Assembly (NCBI GenBank): GCA_965216325.1
Contig: OZ244160.1
Coordinates: 1,632,001 to 1,696,000, forward strand
DNA length: 64,000 nucleotides
Source of the DNA: Coraliomargarita sp.
GTDB taxonomy: Bacteria > Verrucomicrobiota > Verrucomicrobiia > Opitutales > Coraliomargaritaceae
Direction of reading: 5' to 3'
Shown: positions 2,740 to 12,197 of the stretch, one piece after another
Layout of the letters: each line of letters opens with the position of its first letter
Numbering within the stretch: the first letter of the stretch is position 1
Notes under the pieces: model-generated
The model's database searches: none
Seen by the model: the letters and a program-made list of their open reading frames with translations, nothing else
What the model was told of the DNA's origin: nothing
Translations under genes and position numbers: made by a program

Positions 2740-3825
2740 ATGAAAAAAGTCTTTATTTCCGGATGCTACGACATCCTCCACGGCGGCCACATCCAATTCT
2801 TCAAAGAAGCCAGAGCACTCGGCGACCACCTGACCGTCTCGTTTGCGTCCGACAAAGTACTCTGGGAGCACAAAAAGCGCCGCACCTCAATTCCTCAGGA
2901 TCACAAACTGGCACTAATGACGTCTTTAGATATCGTCGACCAAGTTGTCATCGGTGATTGCGACGAACTTGGACTGGATTTCAAAGAGCACTTCTTGAAG
3001 GTGCGCCCTGACATTCTGGCGGTCACCGAAGACGATCAGTATGCTGATGCGAAGAAAGCCCTTTGCGCTGAGGTCGGTGCTGAATACATCGTGCTTCCCA
3101 AGACGCCACCGCAGTTTACGCCGGTGTCCACCACATCTATCGTGCGCAACATACGCACTCCGGCCTATGCGCCACTACGCGTCGATTTTGGCGGCGGTTG
3201 GCTCGACGTCCCTCGTCATGCACGCGAAGGTGGCTTTATCGTGAATTGTGCCATCTCGCCACTTGTTTCCCTGAATGACTGGGGTTACGAGCAAAAGGCC
3301 GGCCTTGGCGGCAGCGGCGCATGGGCACTGTTGAATGGCAATGATGGCGTTGAAAGTGAACTCAACCTCGGGGTTGGCTGGCAAGACCCAGCTGTCATTC
3401 GCGAGACCGGGCTCTGTGTCTGGCGCAGCGGCCCCAAGCCGGTGCTTCACTTCAAGCGCAACGGTGATTTCCTACGCGGACACATGGCACTGCACTACAC
3501 CGACATCCCGCACGACACTCCGTCAAACGCCGACAACAAGCGGGACTATGACTTAATCGAGAAAGCGGGACTGACTGCCAAGCAAGCCGTGTTCGAGGGC
3601 AGCGTGCCCAAGCTAGGCGAAGCTATTCAGCTCAGCTATGAAGCTCAACTCGGCGAAGGCATGCAAGAGCTCCCCAACGCACCAGGCTGCATCGGACGTA
3701 AATACGTCGGCGGTGGCTGGGGCGGCTATGCCCTCTACCTATTTGAGCACAGCGAAGACCGTGATACCTTTGTCGCCTCGGCGAACAACAATCGTCCGAT
3801 CGAGCCGTATATCACGATTCGCTAA
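2740..3825 (+). CDS. Cytidylyltransferase-like (HxGH) domain fused to a compact GHMP-kinase-like domain
   Basis: N-terminal GCYDILHGGH and VSTTSI. C-terminal APLRVDFGGGWLD, AGLGGSGA, GWQDP and GRKYVGGGWGGY resemble the GHMP motifs. Confidence 0.75.
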   Translation: MKKVFISGCYDILHGGHIQFFKEARALGDHLTVSFASDKVLWEHKKRRTSIPQDHKLALMTSLDIVDQVVIGDCDELGLDFKEHFLKVRPDILAVTEDDQYADAKKALCAEVGAEYIVLPKTPPQFTPVSTTSIVRNIRTPAYAPLRVDFGGGWLDVPRHAREGGFIVNCAISPLVSLNDWGYEQKAGLGGSGAWALLNGNDGVESELNLGVGWQDPAVIRETGLCVWRSGPKPVLHFKRNGDFLRGHMALHYTDIPHDTPSNADNKRDYDLIEKAGLTAKQAVFEGSVPKLGEAIQLSYEAQLGEGMQELPNAPGCIGRKYVGGGWGGYALYLFEHSEDRDTFVASANNNRPIEPYITIR

Positions 3826-3901
3826 TCCCGGTCGAAGTGGCAGCGACCGCTAGCCAGAAATGAGCCAGTCGAACTGCCACTAAAACGTGCCAAGCACTGG
3901 G

Positions 3902-3923
3902 AGCGGCTGGAAGCCGCTTCTAC
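3902..3923 (-). repeat. Single GTAG REP-like hairpin (GTAGAAGCGGCTTCCAGCCGCT); may also act as a plus-strand terminator
   Basis: GTAG tetranucleotide plus AGCGGCT/AGCCGCT stem. A T-run follows on the plus strand. Confidence 0.55.
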
Positions 3924-4029
3924 TTTTTCCTTTACGGATTTGGCGAGGGGCTCAGTTTGTTGCGTTTCACTGATTACATAGACTGAGGTGCTTCTGGCCT
4001 CCGCCTTCTGATCGCTGACTTCTGAAACC

Positions 4030-6488: not shown

Positions 6489-7913
6489 ATGATCCTTTCG
6501 TTTGTGTTCGGAGCCCTGACTGGAGCATTCCTGCTCTGGGTGTTTTATTTGGGCAAACGTAAGCAGATCAAACTGCTCGACGAAGAGAAACAATTGCTCG
6601 TTCAAGAGAAGCAAATTGTGGTCGAGTTCATGCACAACATGGTCGAAGCCGTGGTCGAAGAAGGCGATCGCAAGGGCATGTTCCAGCGCATCATCCATGC
6701 GGCCATCCTCAGCACTGGGGCAATGAGTGCGGCCATTTTTGAACGCCGTGAGAATAACTGCCTCCACGGTGTGGCCGTCGAAGGCCTCTTTCCTCCCCAG
6801 CGCCCACTGAATAGCACAAATACTGAGGTTGCCGCAACACGCTCAAAGCACATTGCCGAGATCCTCAAGTCCGAAACATTTCAAATGGGCGAAGGCCTGA
6901 TCGGCGCAGTTGCGAAAAGCCGGCGCGCAGTTTTGATTTCTGATGCGAGCACCGATCCCCGTGTAGTTCAACATGACGACCCTGCACTCCACGTGCGCTC
7001 GATCATAGTAGCCCCTGTTATCTTTAAAGAGGAGCTTATCGCCGTGCTCGCGGTCGCCAACCCATCCGATGGGCTGGCCTTTACTGACACCGATTTCTCA
7101 CTCGTCGAATCACTCGCTGAACAAGTGGGACTCGCCGTCCACAATAGCGACTCACTGAACCTACAACTGGAAAAGAACAAACTCGACCTCGACATCGAAG
7201 TCGCTGGAAACATCCAGAACCTGCTACTCCCCAACACCTTCCCGACATCCAAGTCTCTCGAATTTGCCGCACACTATACCGCAGCGCAGAAAGTCGGTGG
7301 CGACCTTTACGACATTTTTCCAGTCAACTCACATAAGATTGGCGTCGTCGTCGCCGATGTCTCCGGCAAAGGCATCTCCGCTTCTCTCGTGATGGCAATC
7401 TGCCAAACGAACCTGCGACATCTCTCGCGCCAAGAGGAATCCCCAGCCAAAGTGCTCAAAGCAATCAACACCGCGATGCAAAGCTCCATGCGGCGCGACA
7501 TGTTCATCACAATGATCTACGCGATCATCGACACTGAGGGAGGCACACTCACTCTTGCGCGCGCCGGGCACGAACTCCCACTCCTAAGCCGACGTTCAGG
7601 AGTAGAAAGCATCAGCTCCAAAGGCATGGCAGTTGGCATGGTGCCTCCAGAGATCTTCGACCTGAACATCGAGGACTTCACACTCCAGTTCGAGAAAGGC
7701 GATTGCCTGATGCTCTACACCGATGGAGTGACTGAGAGCATCAACGATAACGGAGATGAATATAGCACCGCTCGACTGGCGCAAACACTGCAAGCGAACA
7801 ACGATAAACCTGCTCAGCTAATTCTCGATAATTGCCTGAAGGACGTCGAAAGCTTCGCGTCAATTGAAGGCCAACTGGACGATATCACACTGATCACGGT
7901 GAAGCACCGCTAA
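6489..7913 (+). CDS. Membrane-anchored GAF + PP2C/SpoIIE (RsbU-like) phosphatase
   Basis: N-terminal TM, GAF (GEGLIGAVA, SIIVAPV), VGGDLYD, ADVSGKG, LYTDGVTE, DDIT. Confidence 0.9.
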   Translation: MILSFVFGALTGAFLLWVFYLGKRKQIKLLDEEKQLLVQEKQIVVEFMHNMVEAVVEEGDRKGMFQRIIHAAILSTGAMSAAIFERRENNCLHGVAVEGLFPPQRPLNSTNTEVAATRSKHIAEILKSETFQMGEGLIGAVAKSRRAVLISDASTDPRVVQHDDPALHVRSIIVAPVIFKEELIAVLAVANPSDGLAFTDTDFSLVESLAEQVGLAVHNSDSLNLQLEKNKLDLDIEVAGNIQNLLLPNTFPTSKSLEFAAHYTAAQKVGGDLYDIFPVNSHKIGVVVADVSGKGISASLVMAICQTNLRHLSRQEESPAKVLKAINTAMQSSMRRDMFITMIYAIIDTEGGTLTLARAGHELPLLSRRSGVESISSKGMAVGMVPPEIFDLNIEDFTLQFEKGDCLMLYTDGVTESINDNGDEYSTARLAQTLQANNDKPAQLILDNCLKDVESFASIEGQLDDITLITVKHR

Positions 7914-7914
7914 A

Positions 7915-7940
7915 CAGGTCGGGGTCCCGCCTTTAGGCGG
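7915..7940 (+). repeat. Left arm of an inverted REP-like pair that encloses the intron
   Basis: CAGGTCGGGGTCCCGCCTTTAGGCGG matches the reverse complement of 9189-9214 with one mismatch. Confidence 0.85.
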
Positions 7941-7979
7941 ATTCACGCAGCACAGGCATCCTGCCCGTGTTTCCTGAAC

Positions 7980-9135
7980 ATCGAGTAGCCGGGAGCGGTT
8001 GCCCGCTCCAAGCTCTCACACCACCGGACGTACGGTTCACGTATCACGGCGGTTCCGAAGAAGGATTTCGGCTCTCATCAATTCGAGCAAATCATAGACA
8101 GATAGGAGCTTCATTTGCGTGAAGGCTTTGCGTGGGAGGGCTTGGTTCATGTGAGAGGCTCCGGCTGTTAAACCACGCCCCGCGTCCGTTGTAGCTGCTT
8201 TTGCGTGCACATTCGGGGCTGAGCCCAAGCTGCACCAGCTTCCTGTAGCGGGTGTGGGGACGTTTCCACTGTCGCCAGAGGATGCACCGCAAGCGATGTC
8301 GCAACCATTCGTCCAGTTCCCCGGCGAAGGTTTTCGTCTGACTCAGGCGGAAGTAGTTCGTCCAGCCGCGTAGCACTGGATTGAGCGTCTCAGCGATGAA
8401 GCGGCGCAGGTTGCGCCCGCGCCCTTTGCGGCAGAGTTTCCGCAGCTTGGACTTCATCTTTTGAGTCGTCTGTTTGGGCACGCGAATGCGGCTATGCTTG
8501 CCCCCAGTGAAGCTGTAGCCGAGGAAGATCCGGCGGCTCGGACGATCCACAGCGCTTTTGAGGTGGTTGACCTTCAGCTTCAGTTTGGTCTCCAAGGCCG
8601 ATGGCGCGCTTGATGCGCCCGCATGGACTCGCCCCAGATGCCGTCCGGTTCCTTCCACGCGGGTCTGACGGGTGGTGCCGCCAGCTTCTGCTTCCCTGCT
8701 CTCGCTCATGGTCTCAGTCCTTGTTGTCGTTCTTCGGTTCGATCCTTCGCCCGCGACCTGTGCAGGCTACTATGATCTCGGCTGACTTCTCTAAACACAT
8801 CCCAGTGCCTCGCGACACTGGTAGCCAGTAGCATGTTCAGAGACCTCCCCGGGTAATGCGCACTTACCGTCACACTTATGCCTGCCGCATATACGCCTGC
8901 GCTTTCCGGGCAAGTTTCGGACTTTGAAGTTCTGTGCCTCCTCATCCAACGCAAACGCCTCTTATGCGATTCCTGTTCGTCAGGCCAGTGCTTTGCCATA
9001 GGCTTCCTTCCCACGAACACCTCGCGATGCCGCAGTTGCCCTTCGGCTAACTCTTCCCCTTGCCGGGCGAGTAACAGACTTTCATCAATTTCCATTAATA
9101 ATCACTGTCGAGTAAGTGCGCCCTGCCGGGCGCAC
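7980..9135 (-). mobile_element. Group IIC intron with an internally deleted, non-autonomous IEP
   Basis: 5' GTGCGCCCGGCAGGGCGCAC at 9135, directly after a terminator. DV ACCGCCGTGATACGTGAACCGTACGTCCGGTGGT (~8020-8053) with CGC triad. DVI ends ...GGCTACTCGAT at 7980. Putative EBS1 loop ACGAA (8976-8980) pairs with 5' exon UUUGU. Confidence 0.93.
8037..8709 (-). pseudogene. ltrA: Group II intron-encoded protein remnant: N-terminal leader fused to RT7 and thumb/X; no YADD; +1 frameshift near 8167
   Basis: ...SAPSALE|TKLKLKVN..KSAVDRP..FLGYSF, then LNPVLRGWTNYF and WRQWKRP. The tail GASHMNQAL lies in another frame (ORF 8037..8228). Confidence 0.88.
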
Positions 9136-9169
9136 ACAAAAAAGCCACGAACTCATCCGAATTCGTGGC
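9136..9169 (-). terminator. Rho-independent terminator after acnB; insertion target of the intron
   Basis: Minus strand GCCACGAA-TTCGGATGAG-TTCGTGGC-TTTTTTGT immediately precedes the intron GTGCG. Confidence 0.85.
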
Positions 9170-9188
9170 GTTGAAAATGATGGCTAAA

Positions 9189-9214
9189 CCGCCTAAAGGC
9201 GGGACCCCAACCTG
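9189..9214 (-). repeat. Right arm of the inverted REP-like pair
   Basis: CCGCCTAAAGGCGGGACCCCAACCTG is the inverted copy of 7915-7940. Confidence 0.85.
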
Positions 9215-9217
9215 CTC

Positions 9218-11986
9218 TTAGAGGCTAAGCTCCTTTTGCGAAGGCGCAAACTTAGTCAGGTTGATGCCAACCACGGCATCCTTATACTCATCCATGTTCG
9301 GGATGCGGCCAAGGATTGCGGAAAGCACGACCACCGGAGTCGATGCGAGCAGGGACTCACCCTTCTTGCGCTCGGAGTCTTCCACCACGCGACCTTGGAA
9401 CAGGCGTGTGGAGGTTGCGAGCACGGTGTCACCCTTCGCAGCCTTTTCTTGGTTACCCATACAAAGGTTACAACCTGGACGCTCCAGATACATCATGTTC
9501 TCGTATTCAGTGCGGGCAGTGTCCTTCGGCGCATTGTCGTCGAACTCGAAACCAGAATACTTCTCAAGCAACTCCCAGTCACCTTCCGCCTTCAGCTCAT
9601 CAATGATGTTGTAAGTCGGCGCAGCAACCACCAGTGGTGCATTGAACTCAACCTTGCCCTGCTGAGCTTCGAGGTTCTTGAGCATTTGCGAAACGATCTT
9701 CAAGTCACCCTTGTGCACCATGCAGGAACCGACGAAACCGAGGTCCACCTTCTTATCACCACCGTAGTAGGAAACCGGGCGAATCGTGTCGTGGGTGTAG
9801 CGCTTGGAAACGTCGTCGTTGTTCACGTCCGGGTCAGCAATCATTGGCTCGTCGATGATGTCCAGATCGACCACGAACTCAGCGAAATACTTCGCATTGC
9901 TGTCCGGCATGAGCGCAGGCTTCTCGCCGGAGCGGATCTCAGCGATACGTGCGTCGGCACGATCAACGAGGCCTTGCAGCACCTTCGCGTCGTTGTCCAT
10001 ACCCTTCTCGATCATGATCTGGATACGGCTCTTTGCGATTTCGAGCGATTCGATCAGCGTCTCGTCCTCAGAAATGCAGATCGCGGCCTTAGCCTTCATT
10101 TCTGCAGTCCAGTCAGTGAAGGTGAACGCCTGGTCGGCTGGAAGTGTGCCGATGTGAACTTCGATCACGCGGCCCTGGAAAACGTTGTCACCAAATTTCT
10201 TGAGCATCTGCGCCTGTGTGGCGTGCACCACATCGCGGAAGTCCATGTGGTCCTTCAGGTCGCCCTGGAAAGTCACCTTTACCGATTCTGGGATCGGCAT
10301 GGTTGCCTCACCGGTTGCGAGCGCGAGCGCCACCGTGCCGGAGTCCGCACCGAATGCAACACCCTTGGACATACGCGTGTGGGAGTCACCACCGATGATG
10401 ATCGCCCACTCATCCACAGTCAGGTCATTGAGCACCTTGTGGATCACGTCAGTCATCGCGTGGTATTCACCTTGCGGGTCACGCGCAGTGATCAGGCCGA
10501 AGTTGTTCATGAACTTCATCAGCTTCGGGATATTGGCCTGCGCCTTCTTATCCCAGACAGATGCAGTGTGACAGCCAGACTGGTAAGAACCGTCAACGGT
10601 TGGTGAAACTACAGTCGCTGCCATCGCCTCAAGCTCCTGCATGGTCATGAGACCAGTCGTGTCCTGAGAACCGACGATGTTGACCTTTACGCGGACGTCG
10701 GAGCCAGCGTGAAGCGTGAGCCCCTCAGTCGTGCCGACTGCATTCTTGTTGAAGATCTTCTCAACTGCAGTGAGGCCTTGGTCCTCGTGGGAGATTTCCT
10801 TGGAGGGTGCAAAGACCGCATCTGGAGCCACACCGAGTGTCGCTGCTGCGAAGCTTTGGAGCTTCTTACCGAAGACAATCGCGTAGGAGCCACCCGCCTT
10901 GATGAACTCAACCTTCTGCGGAGTGAGCGCGGAGGAGATGTCGACGAGCTCTTGGTCGCCGTTGTAGAGCTTCTTGGTCTTGGTGTTGATCGTCAGAACA
11001 GTGCCGGTTTCAACCGAGTAAGCTTGCTCCAACACGGCATCGCCGTTCTCGTCGAGCACTGGCTTGCCGTCGGCGTCGAGCTTCTTGACCCAGTTCTTCA
11101 GGTCGATGCCGATACCGCCTGTAACACTGACAGTGGTCAGGAAGATCGGTGAAATGCCATTGGTGCCTGCAACGACTGGAGCGATGTTCACGAACGGCAC
11201 ATAGGGGCTCGCTTGCTTACCAGTCCAGAGCGCGACGTTGTTCACGCCCGACATACGGGAAGAGCCCACGCCCATGGTGCCCTTTTCAGCGATCAGCATC
11301 ACACGCTTGCCCGGATGCTGTGCCTGCAGGCCTTGAATCTCAATTTGTGCCTCCGGAGAGATCATACACTTACCGTGCAGCTCGCGATCGGAGCGGGAGT
11401 GGGCCTGGTTACCCGGGGAAAGCAAGTCGGTAGAGATGTCGCCTTCGGCCGCGATGTAGGTGACGACCTCGATCTCTTCGTCCACATCTGGAAGCTTGGT
11501 GAAGAATTCAGCCTTCGCATAGCTCTCAAGAATGTCCTTGGCGATTGCATTGCCGTCTTTGAAAGCAGTTGCGAGACGGTCGGTATCCGCGTCGTAGAGG
11601 AACACCTGAGTCTTAAGCACATCCGCAGCTTGAGCAGCGATGCCGGCATCATCACCTAGCGCTAGGTCAAGCAGCACCTCAACGGACGGGCCACCCTTCA
11701 TGTGCGAGAGTAGTTCGAACGCGAACTCCGGAGTGATCTCTTCCACGACGGTCTCGCCGAGAATGATTTCCTTCAGAAACGCAGCCTTCACACCCGCGGC
11801 ACTAGTGGTGCCCGGCAAAGTGTTGTAGATGAAAAAGTTGAGGGAGTCCTTACGATGCTCACTCGAGGCATCTTTGATCTGCTCGATAATTGCAGCCACT
11901 AGCTCGCCGCCGTCGATCGGCTTCGGGCTCAAGCCTTGAGCTTTGCGCTCTTCGATTTCTGTTAAATAGTCAGTATATGTGTCCAT
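9218..11986 (-). CDS. acnB: Aconitate hydratase B / 2-methylisocitrate dehydratase
   Basis: STDLLSP, GSSRMSG, GSQDTTG, QSGCH, GGDSHTR, GSCMV, PGCNLCMGNQ, STRLF. Start is 11986 or the GTG at 11995. Confidence 0.93.
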   Translation of the reverse strand: MDTYTDYLTEIEERKAQGLSPKPIDGGELVAAIIEQIKDASSEHRKDSLNFFIYNTLPGTTSAAGVKAAFLKEIILGETVVEEITPEFAFELLSHMKGGPSVEVLLDLALGDDAGIAAQAADVLKTQVFLYDADTDRLATAFKDGNAIAKDILESYAKAEFFTKLPDVDEEIEVVTYIAAEGDISTDLLSPGNQAHSRSDRELHGKCMISPEAQIEIQGLQAQHPGKRVMLIAEKGTMGVGSSRMSGVNNVALWTGKQASPYVPFVNIAPVVAGTNGISPIFLTTVSVTGGIGIDLKNWVKKLDADGKPVLDENGDAVLEQAYSVETGTVLTINTKTKKLYNGDQELVDISSALTPQKVEFIKAGGSYAIVFGKKLQSFAAATLGVAPDAVFAPSKEISHEDQGLTAVEKIFNKNAVGTTEGLTLHAGSDVRVKVNIVGSQDTTGLMTMQELEAMAATVVSPTVDGSYQSGCHTASVWDKKAQANIPKLMKFMNNFGLITARDPQGEYHAMTDVIHKVLNDLTVDEWAIIIGGDSHTRMSKGVAFGADSGTVALALATGEATMPIPESVKVTFQGDLKDHMDFRDVVHATQAQMLKKFGDNVFQGRVIEVHIGTLPADQAFTFTDWTAEMKAKAAICISEDETLIESLEIAKSRIQIMIEKGMDNDAKVLQGLVDRADARIAEIRSGEKPALMPDSNAKYFAEFVVDLDIIDEPMIADPDVNNDDVSKRYTHDTIRPVSYYGGDKKVDLGFVGSCMVHKGDLKIVSQMLKNLEAQQGKVEFNAPLVVAAPTYNIIDELKAEGDWELLEKYSGFEFDDNAPKDTARTEYENMMYLERPGCNLCMGNQEKAAKGDTVLATSTRLFQGRVVEDSERKKGESLLASTPVVVLSAILGRIPNMDEYKDAVVGINLTKFAPSQKELSL

Positions 11987-12197
11987 AGATAGCACACATA
12001 TGTCCTTTCAGGCCTGTATTTTACAAGAAGATTCTCGCGCTGCGGACATGAATCGCTTTCGAATTATTCATCGCACGGATGAATTGATTACGAGAAGCCC
12101 CAGAAGCGTTCACCACTTGACAATCAAAGGCTTTCGGTGAAAAACATTGCCACACCCATTTTCTGGGACGCGACGTTACTCACTTACTATTGGCACT

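Follow-up and report, generated by a model that had tools for sequence, protein, structure and literature searches.

A reverse-transcriptase-deleted class C group II intron with full-length siblings in Coraliomargarita sp., probably a non-autonomous element spread in trans

Group II introns without an open reading frame (ORF) nearly always occur beside related introns that code for an intron-encoded protein (IEP), which possibly acts on them in trans (PMC4424553). Thermosynechococcus elongatus contains 17 ORF-less TeI3 introns that are reported to share one common deletion, and sibling IEPs mobilized them in E. coli assays (PMC2882425). Likewise, three near-identical ORF-deleted copies of B.c.I7 were described on pE33L466 of Bacillus cereus E33L together with one complete copy, a situation read by the authors as mobilization in trans; the sole class C element of the B. 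cereus group given in that account is a different intron, from strain NVH391-98 (PMC2504315). The 64,000-nt stretch of Coraliomargarita sp. analyzed here (the window, corresponding to positions 1,632,001-1,696,000 of a genome consisting of a single 3,064,510-bp contig, OZ244160.1) carries at 7980-9135, on the minus strand, a class C group II intron of 1156 nt that has lost most of its reverse transcriptase (RT) coding region. The available evidence suggests that it is a non-autonomous intron derivative, probably spread in trans by the IEP of its sister copies.

Based on BLAST searches of the host genome, at least four deleted copies (the window copy D1, of 1156 nt, and D2-D4, of 1155 nt) coexist with at least six full-length copies of 1914 nt (F1-F6), which match the deleted element in two blocks. 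An initial annotation, made from the letters of the window copy, had envisaged both full-length copies and copies with the same junction; three further copies of the latter type and six full-length siblings were thus found. All ten copies are at least 99.3% identical, and D1 shares 99.7-100% identity with the other three deleted ones. In a MAFFT alignment the four deleted copies display an identical gap of 759 columns (full-length positions 541-1299), meaning that 253 codons present in the six full-length copies are missing in frame. The deletion takes IEP residues 41-293, from RT0 through most of RT7 and including the YADD motif, and joins ...SAPSALE to TKLKLKVN. The in-frame jump from SAPSA-LE to LE-TKLKLKVN and the loss of YADD and the upstream RT blocks, both proposed previously for the window copy, are borne out by the alignment with the six full-length copies, RT0-RT6 lying within the gap. 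In the full-length copies the segment that corresponds to the deletion has the heptamer TTGGAGA at either end, and a single one of these two direct repeats is left in the deleted copies (8589-8595 in the window, minus strand, as are all features of the window copy given below); the microhomology formerly suspected at the shared LE codons corresponds to these 7 nt.

The full-length copies encode the potential helper. Their ORF is open for 476 aa in five of the six, that of F4 stopping at codon 451, and the 476-aa IEP matches two Pfam domains only, RVT_1 (3.3e-40) and GIIM (2.2e-20). The intact sibling IEP invoked in the initial annotation therefore exists in five copies, with both domains. Its closest solved relative is the RT of GsI-IIC (1.2e-133, residues 49-457), and by their sequence the full-length siblings are ordinary class C members.

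Rho-independent terminators have been reported as targets of class C introns (PMC4748821), and insertion behind terminator stem-loops, stated beforehand for class C introns in general, holds for all ten copies: each is preceded by a hairpin of its own (-15.8 to -26.0 kcal/mol) and by a T-run ending in TTTTTGT. The flanks of the ten copies are unrelated right outside the intron and show no target-site duplication; these unrelated flanks and distinct terminator sites exclude segmental duplication as the origin of the copies. The distance from the stop codon of a long open frame on the same strand to the intron amounts to 52-82 nt in every case (10/10), these frames being mechanical calls with the exception of acnB. 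In the window, the target is the terminator of acnB, a hairpin with an 11-bp stem and a 4-nt loop at 9144-9169 (RNAfold, -18.4 kcal/mol over 45 nt), followed by the T-run plus GT, TTTTTTGT, at 9136-9143; the 5' exon ends in TTTTTGT and the last 6 nt constitute intron-binding site 1 (IBS1). The acnB gene (aconitase B, 925 aa; ORF 9218-11995, with three Pfam aconitase domains) lies upstream on the same strand, and the gene downstream of the intron is a convergent GAF-SpoIIE phosphatase. A crude scan of the genome for a hairpin followed by four or more T and GT returned 150 sites, 10 of which are occupied.

A strand bias has also been reported for class C introns (PMC8919778). The sign of the GC skew in this genome switches near 1.08 and 1.80 Mb, and the sense strand of the intron coincides with the G-rich strand in eight of the ten copies, the four deleted ones included. 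This orientation would be as expected for endonuclease-less (En-less) introns using replication forks, a comparison in which the strand bias of the copies is confounded with gene orientation. As a separate observation, the cumulative GC skew does not close, with a negative arm of approximately 0.72 Mb vs a positive one of approximately 2.34 Mb, pointing to replichores of very unequal size, to a large rearrangement or to a problem in the assembly.

The segment 7980-9135 is confirmed as a real class C group II intron. Its 5' end, GTGCG, occupies 9135-9131 and its 3' end, ...CTCGAT, closes at 7980, in agreement with the GUGYG and AY ends of group II introns and with the GUGCG start and AT end described before. 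Two Rfam models score well above their gathering thresholds, RF02001 (group-II-D1D4-3; 129.7 bits vs 32) over the core segment of domain I at 8858-9031 and RF01998 (group-II-D1D4-1; 67.2 bits vs 35) over a downstream ribozyme segment at 8742-8824. Domains V and VI (DV and DVI; 7980-8054) align end to end with RF00029 (1-77) at a score below gathering, and their predicted fold has an energy of -40.1 kcal/mol. In this alignment the consensus GAGCCG faces CCGCCG of the intron, so that CGC occupies the position of the AGC triad; a CGC in the DV triad is a mark of class C. The DV with a CGC triad and the covariance-model check put forward in the initial annotation were in this way substantiated, with RF00029 as the one group II model under its threshold. 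The bulged A of DVI is located at 7986, 7 nt from the 3' end of the intron. The RNA preceding the ORF has the length estimated earlier (about 426 nt), the ATG being at intron position 427. The basal stem of domain IV (DIV) is predicted to form between its 5' strand CCGAAGAA (8730-8737) and TTCTTCGG (8055-8062), and the fold prediction gives this stem alike in full-length and deleted DIV. Further Rfam matches (Transposase-2, astro_FSE, SAM_alpha, sR10 and SOX2OT) fell far under gathering and were taken as chance.

Exon recognition could be assigned by covariation. The sequence ACAGAA (8935-8930), contained in an 8-nt hairpin loop of domain I, GC[ACAGAA], pairs with the exon end UUUUGU over 6 bp, one G-U included, and is identified as exon-binding site 1 (EBS1) by its covariation with the exon ends of related loci. 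Among the 79 related loci, 20 were scanned with Rfam and all of them matched RF02001; the covariation set comprised 21 sequences, of which the loop was extracted in 19 (L056 and L080 were left out). In 16 of these 19 loci the loop GC[NNNNNN] forms at least three contiguous pairs with the exon, counted from the splice site. When exon ends were shuffled among loci the mean was 3.4, and none of 2000 shuffles reached 16. Fewer than three pairs were seen in L094 and L075 (two each) and in L054 (none, solely because its loop is 1 nt longer). The initial annotation had instead assigned the pairing with UUUGU to an ACGAA loop, a candidate that had to be abandoned because the motif GACGAACAG is almost invariant in 20 relatives in spite of their differing exon ends (GTG, ATG, TTT, TAT, ATC and others). 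Class C introns are described as having no EBS2-IBS2 pairing (PMC2504315).

Contigs of public sequencing runs were compared with positions 7700-9400 of the window. In two runs bearing the same species label, X1 and X2, which are possibly the source of the assembly, contigs bridge both intron/exon junctions, and a 52-nt contig (8567-8618) spans the deletion junction with zero differences; the doubt raised previously that the junction could be a misassembly is answered by this support. The depth per contig in X1 reached 3812-3994 in the parts shared by all copies, 1600 in the junction piece and 367-397 in the flanks, values that fit four of about ten copies, though depth is not copy number. On the other side, a seawater-metagenome contig from run X5 (331 nt, one difference) joins 7977 to 9134, skipping 1156 nt, and three ambiguous letters at the joint permit a cut exactly at 7980-9135. 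The same joint is present in a contig of X20, an RNA library sequenced from a related organism (317 nt, three differences and a gap). This joint is a precise empty site, and it confirms the boundaries of the intron. The states seen at the window site are empty and deleted, never full-length, in what is a small sample. Among the RNA runs, X20 alone contained part of the stretch, whereas X21-X24 had hardly any of its sequence words. Empty sites were also sought in three genomes of the same genus, in which the intergenic regions are too diverged to be read precisely: in one of them (G003) the last aligned stretches are separated by some 380 nt of unrelated spacer sequence. In another (G002, C6:73266-74806) acnB and the SpoIIE-type phosphatase gene are separated by two additional open frames of about 1.5 kb, at the place taken by the intron in the present genome.

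A search of 40 relatives did not find the intron in the three same-genus genomes (completeness 80, 99, and 76%) and retrieved a full-length relative, 80-85% identical, in one other genus (G020). The closest IEPs belong to a metagenome-assembled genome of the Puniceicoccaceae (84%) and to Pelagicoccus (77%). The exact 29-nt pattern of the deletion junction had no match in the metagenome contigs, and when the 223-aa remnant ORF was searched against metagenomes, 63 loci were found; in the eight of these examined by tblastn (L122, L123, L129, L132, L133, L134, L135, and L147) this deletion junction is absent. One of them, L132 (23-1419 of a 1501-nt contig), is an intron of 84% nucleotide identity that carries an in-frame deletion of its own, 525 nt long (full-length positions 592-1116); its ORF of 302 aa has lost RT1-RT4 and keeps YADD and the thumb, matching the end of RVT_1 plus GIIM. 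Internal RT deletions thus recur in this lineage, at breakpoints other than those of the Coraliomargarita copies. Locus L134 (592-1596, 2498-3186) holds what is left of a 72%-identical intron truncated at its 5' end (full-length positions 1233-1914). A different RT ORF, with only 32% identity to the 476-aa IEP, lies about 900 nt upstream of it.

The ORF remnant of the window copy (8092-8709, 205 aa) consists of a 40-aa leader, the end of RT7 and the X/thumb region, followed by a frameshifted C-terminal tail, and matches Pfam GIIM alone (3.2e-21), without an RVT_1 match. D1 equals the ten-copy consensus everywhere except for two private changes, both within DIV: a synonymous substitution at 8551 (G to T in the intron sense, full-length position 1344) and a 1-nt insertion at 8163/8164 (AGCCGG vs AGCGG in the other nine copies; alignment column 1731). 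Through this extra C some 40 codons at the 3' end of the ORF are read out of frame, which accounts for the +1 frameshift in the thumb tail noticed earlier near 8167. Collapsed read contigs give the family consensus at 8163 and 8551, so that the extra C could be genuine or could stem from faulty assembly. Among the other deleted copies, a private nonsense codon shortens the ORF of D3 to 118 aa, and D2 and D4 have an open frame of 223 aa. The remnant is therefore decaying in two of the four deleted copies, which argues against selection on it. Conversely, it could be asked whether the in-frame nature of the deletion is accidental, as the frame from the leader across the X/thumb domain to the stop codon, which in the full-length IEP sits in the DV loop, is open in two independent deletions (759 nt with 223 aa in D2 and D4; 525 nt with 302 aa in L132). 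An RT-less thumb protein acting as a MatK-like helper or competitor, or a need for translation across DIV for mobility, for example by shielding the RNA from Rho termination or nucleases, are conceivable reasons, although this proposal is regarded as quite improbable. With respect to the leader, the full-length IEP has 48 N-terminal aa without counterpart in the GsI-IIC RT, with which the alignment begins at residue 49; its conservation in L132 is 64% over residues 1-55 vs 84% over residues 223-476, and the 5' end of the deletion falls right after it (leader codons 1-40 correspond to 8590-8709). The leader may be important as RNA (domain IVa) and not as protein.

The model that best accommodates these data would begin with one full-length copy of 1914 nt that lost 759 nt of RT coding region between the TTGGAGA repeats, a deletion that would have left untouched domains I-III, DV, DVI and the base of DIV with the 5' end of the ORF. 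The shortened RNA would be transcribed by read-through of the preceding terminator, would fold, and would be assisted in splicing by the 476-aa RT/maturase produced by the full-length sisters. The resulting ribonucleoprotein, with its borrowed IEP, may then reverse-splice into single-stranded DNA behind the hairpins of other intrinsic terminators, sites that would be recognized through the hairpin and the 6-bp pairing of EBS1 (ACAGAA) with IBS1 (UUUUGU), and the borrowed RT would copy the inserted intron into DNA. In this way the element would have reached the four terminators where it is now found, and the window copy would later have gained a frameshift in an ORF remnant that was useless by then. 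Transcription, splicing, mobilization in trans and a single origin of the deletion are suggested here by the genomic pattern and by precedent. As to the earlier proposal that the element may still splice and be mobilized by an intact IEP, the shared junction, the four terminators and the intact sibling IEPs speak in its favor, and splicing and mobilization themselves keep the status of probable events.

Several observations weigh against this reading. The RF00029 score of DV and DVI, 30.1 bits, is under the gathering value of 40, the match having been recovered by a permissive scan with a local E of 0.0014. Masking covers 24 kb of the genome, which makes the numbers of deleted and full-length copies lower bounds. 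The joined form of the window site also occurs in a DNA-type run and in slightly different strains, and hence it represents an empty site and not a product of splicing. F1 and F2 have the "wrong" orientation with respect to the G-rich strand, 16-62 kb past the skew switch at 1.08 Mb. In addition, the deleted copies do not form a clean clade, as no single-nucleotide polymorphism (SNP) common to them sets them apart: at position 1689, D2, D4, F3, and F5 carry C and all others A, and T at position 1777 is confined to D3 and F4, so that the deletion is incompatible with these two sites on a simple tree. By our own estimate chance parallel mutation is very unlikely at so low a divergence; possible causes of the conflict include short conversion tracts among the near-identical copies, conversion of residents by a deleted donor, recurrent deletion and polishing artefacts.

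The alternative that survives best is a spread at the DNA level, in which ectopic gene conversion by a single deleted copy would have turned full-length copies already resident at the four terminators into the deleted form, the deleted RNA itself not being retromobile. The SNPs on the 3' side of the deleted copies match those of full-length ones (1689C in F3 and F5, 1777T in F4), as expected of residents that were converted only in their central part, and the deletion is flanked by 540 and 615 nt of near-identical homology. However, conversion requires a full-length state that was not seen at the window site, where the small sample contains just empty and deleted forms, and with six full-length donors vs four deleted ones restoring events should outnumber deleting ones. 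Moreover, the same SNPs can be explained by conversion tracts formed after retrohoming or by short-read polishing of 99.7%-identical repeats. Altogether, gene conversion as the source of the four copies is considered unlikely.

There is little to recommend the view that the deleted copies are dead relics, immobile and, in the case of the window copy, no longer able to splice. The frameshift of the window copy, the nonsense codon in the D3 remnant and a DV/DVI below the Rfam threshold would agree with decay, but four copies at four unrelated terminators require mobility or conversion, the window copy is identical to the family consensus throughout outside DIV, and the remnant ORF would be dispensable if the IEP were supplied in trans; this possibility appears very improbable. 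The weakest explanation, an independent origin of the same deletion two or three times by RT jumping between the TTGGAGA repeats as it copied full-length intron RNA in retrohoming, would fit the haplotypes common to deleted and full-length copies and the 525-nt in-frame deletion of L132 (84% identical), yet it is considered very unlikely given that the ORF region contains 56 pairs of maximal direct repeats (7 nt or longer, spaced by at least 300 nt), with 19 pairs of 8-mers and one of 11 nt, so that TTGGAGA is not privileged, that the predicted DIV fold does not juxtapose its two repeats, and that the breakpoints differ in L132.

Additional elements were noticed in the genome apart from the ten copies. 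A diverged copy (93% identical) is represented by 107 nt of its 5' end at genome positions 490297-490403, where it directly follows a hairpin and T-run and gives way to unrelated sequence on the other side; this is an insertion of older date that has been truncated. A second group II family is indicated by five 77%-identical DV/DVI matches at genome positions 552204, 556784, 2275847, 2764760, and 2851448. In the window, a repeat of about 24 nt that contains a palindrome (core CCGCC-N4-GGCGGGACCCC) flanks the intron in inverted orientation at 9189-9212 and 7917-7940. A strict regular expression for this core finds 14 genome copies, the 11-mer GGCGGGACCCC occurs 19 times vs about 1.5 expected, and many short matches of this type were observed in two genomes of the same genus. 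It looks like a family of intergenic repeats resembling repetitive extragenic palindromic (REP) sequences.

Compared with the systems described so far, the window intron and its copies share with TeI3 one ORF-deletion breakpoint in many copies, remnants of the N- and C-terminal parts of the ORF, insertion at a variety of sites whose EBS/IBS pairing is good, and the presence of IEP-encoding siblings (Mohr et al., 2010). TeI3 is reported to belong to another intron class and comprises 17 copies in families with new EBS sequences and a deletion of about 1.5 kb. Unlike TeI3, the present element belongs to class C, is inserted at terminator hairpins, retains the X/thumb coding region and counts only four copies with almost no divergence. 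As in the case of B.c.I7, ORF-deleted copies are found beside complete ones in one genome; in B.c.I7 the ORF is nearly all gone (13 bp and 28 bp are left) and the copies are described at variable ectopic sites far from genes (Tourasse and Kolsto, 2008). The autonomous class C introns GsI-IIC (PDB 6ar1) and B.h.I1 (PMC4424553) likewise insert at terminator hairpins and combine an En-less RT/maturase with a small ribozyme and a short IBS1. In contrast to these, the window copy is devoid of RT0-RT6 and YADD, which makes an RT of its own impossible. An RT-deleted class C intron that had proliferated was not found in the literature searched, and the main survey of ORF-less introns in bacteria (Simon et al., 2008) could contain one.

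The comparison with MITEs (miniature inverted-repeat transposable elements) made in the initial annotation deserves a comment. MITEs are DNA transposons of a non-autonomous kind, bounded by terminal inverted repeats and flanked by target-site duplications. The label holds only as an analogy, in that here too a shorter, internally deleted derivative would parasitize the enzyme of a full-length element; taken literally it does not apply, the intron ending in GTGCG...CGAT, with neither terminal inverted repeats nor a target-site duplication.

An RT-deleted intron of this kind does not change current understanding; parasitic behavior was already known from other bacteria. The present intron would represent a very young and cleanly resolved case, with one deletion, four insertions, six potential helpers and a natural empty site, in a genome with some 140 further candidate terminator targets and in a class that recognizes DNA hairpins and not long sequence. 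These features may make it a simple natural system for asking which parts of DIV are required by a class C RT/maturase acting in trans, and at what rate non-autonomous retroelements can overtake their helpers. With regard to known systems, this is the same phenomenon as in TeI3 and B.c.I7, here seen in a Verrucomicrobium and in an intron of class C, and as such it is not surprising.

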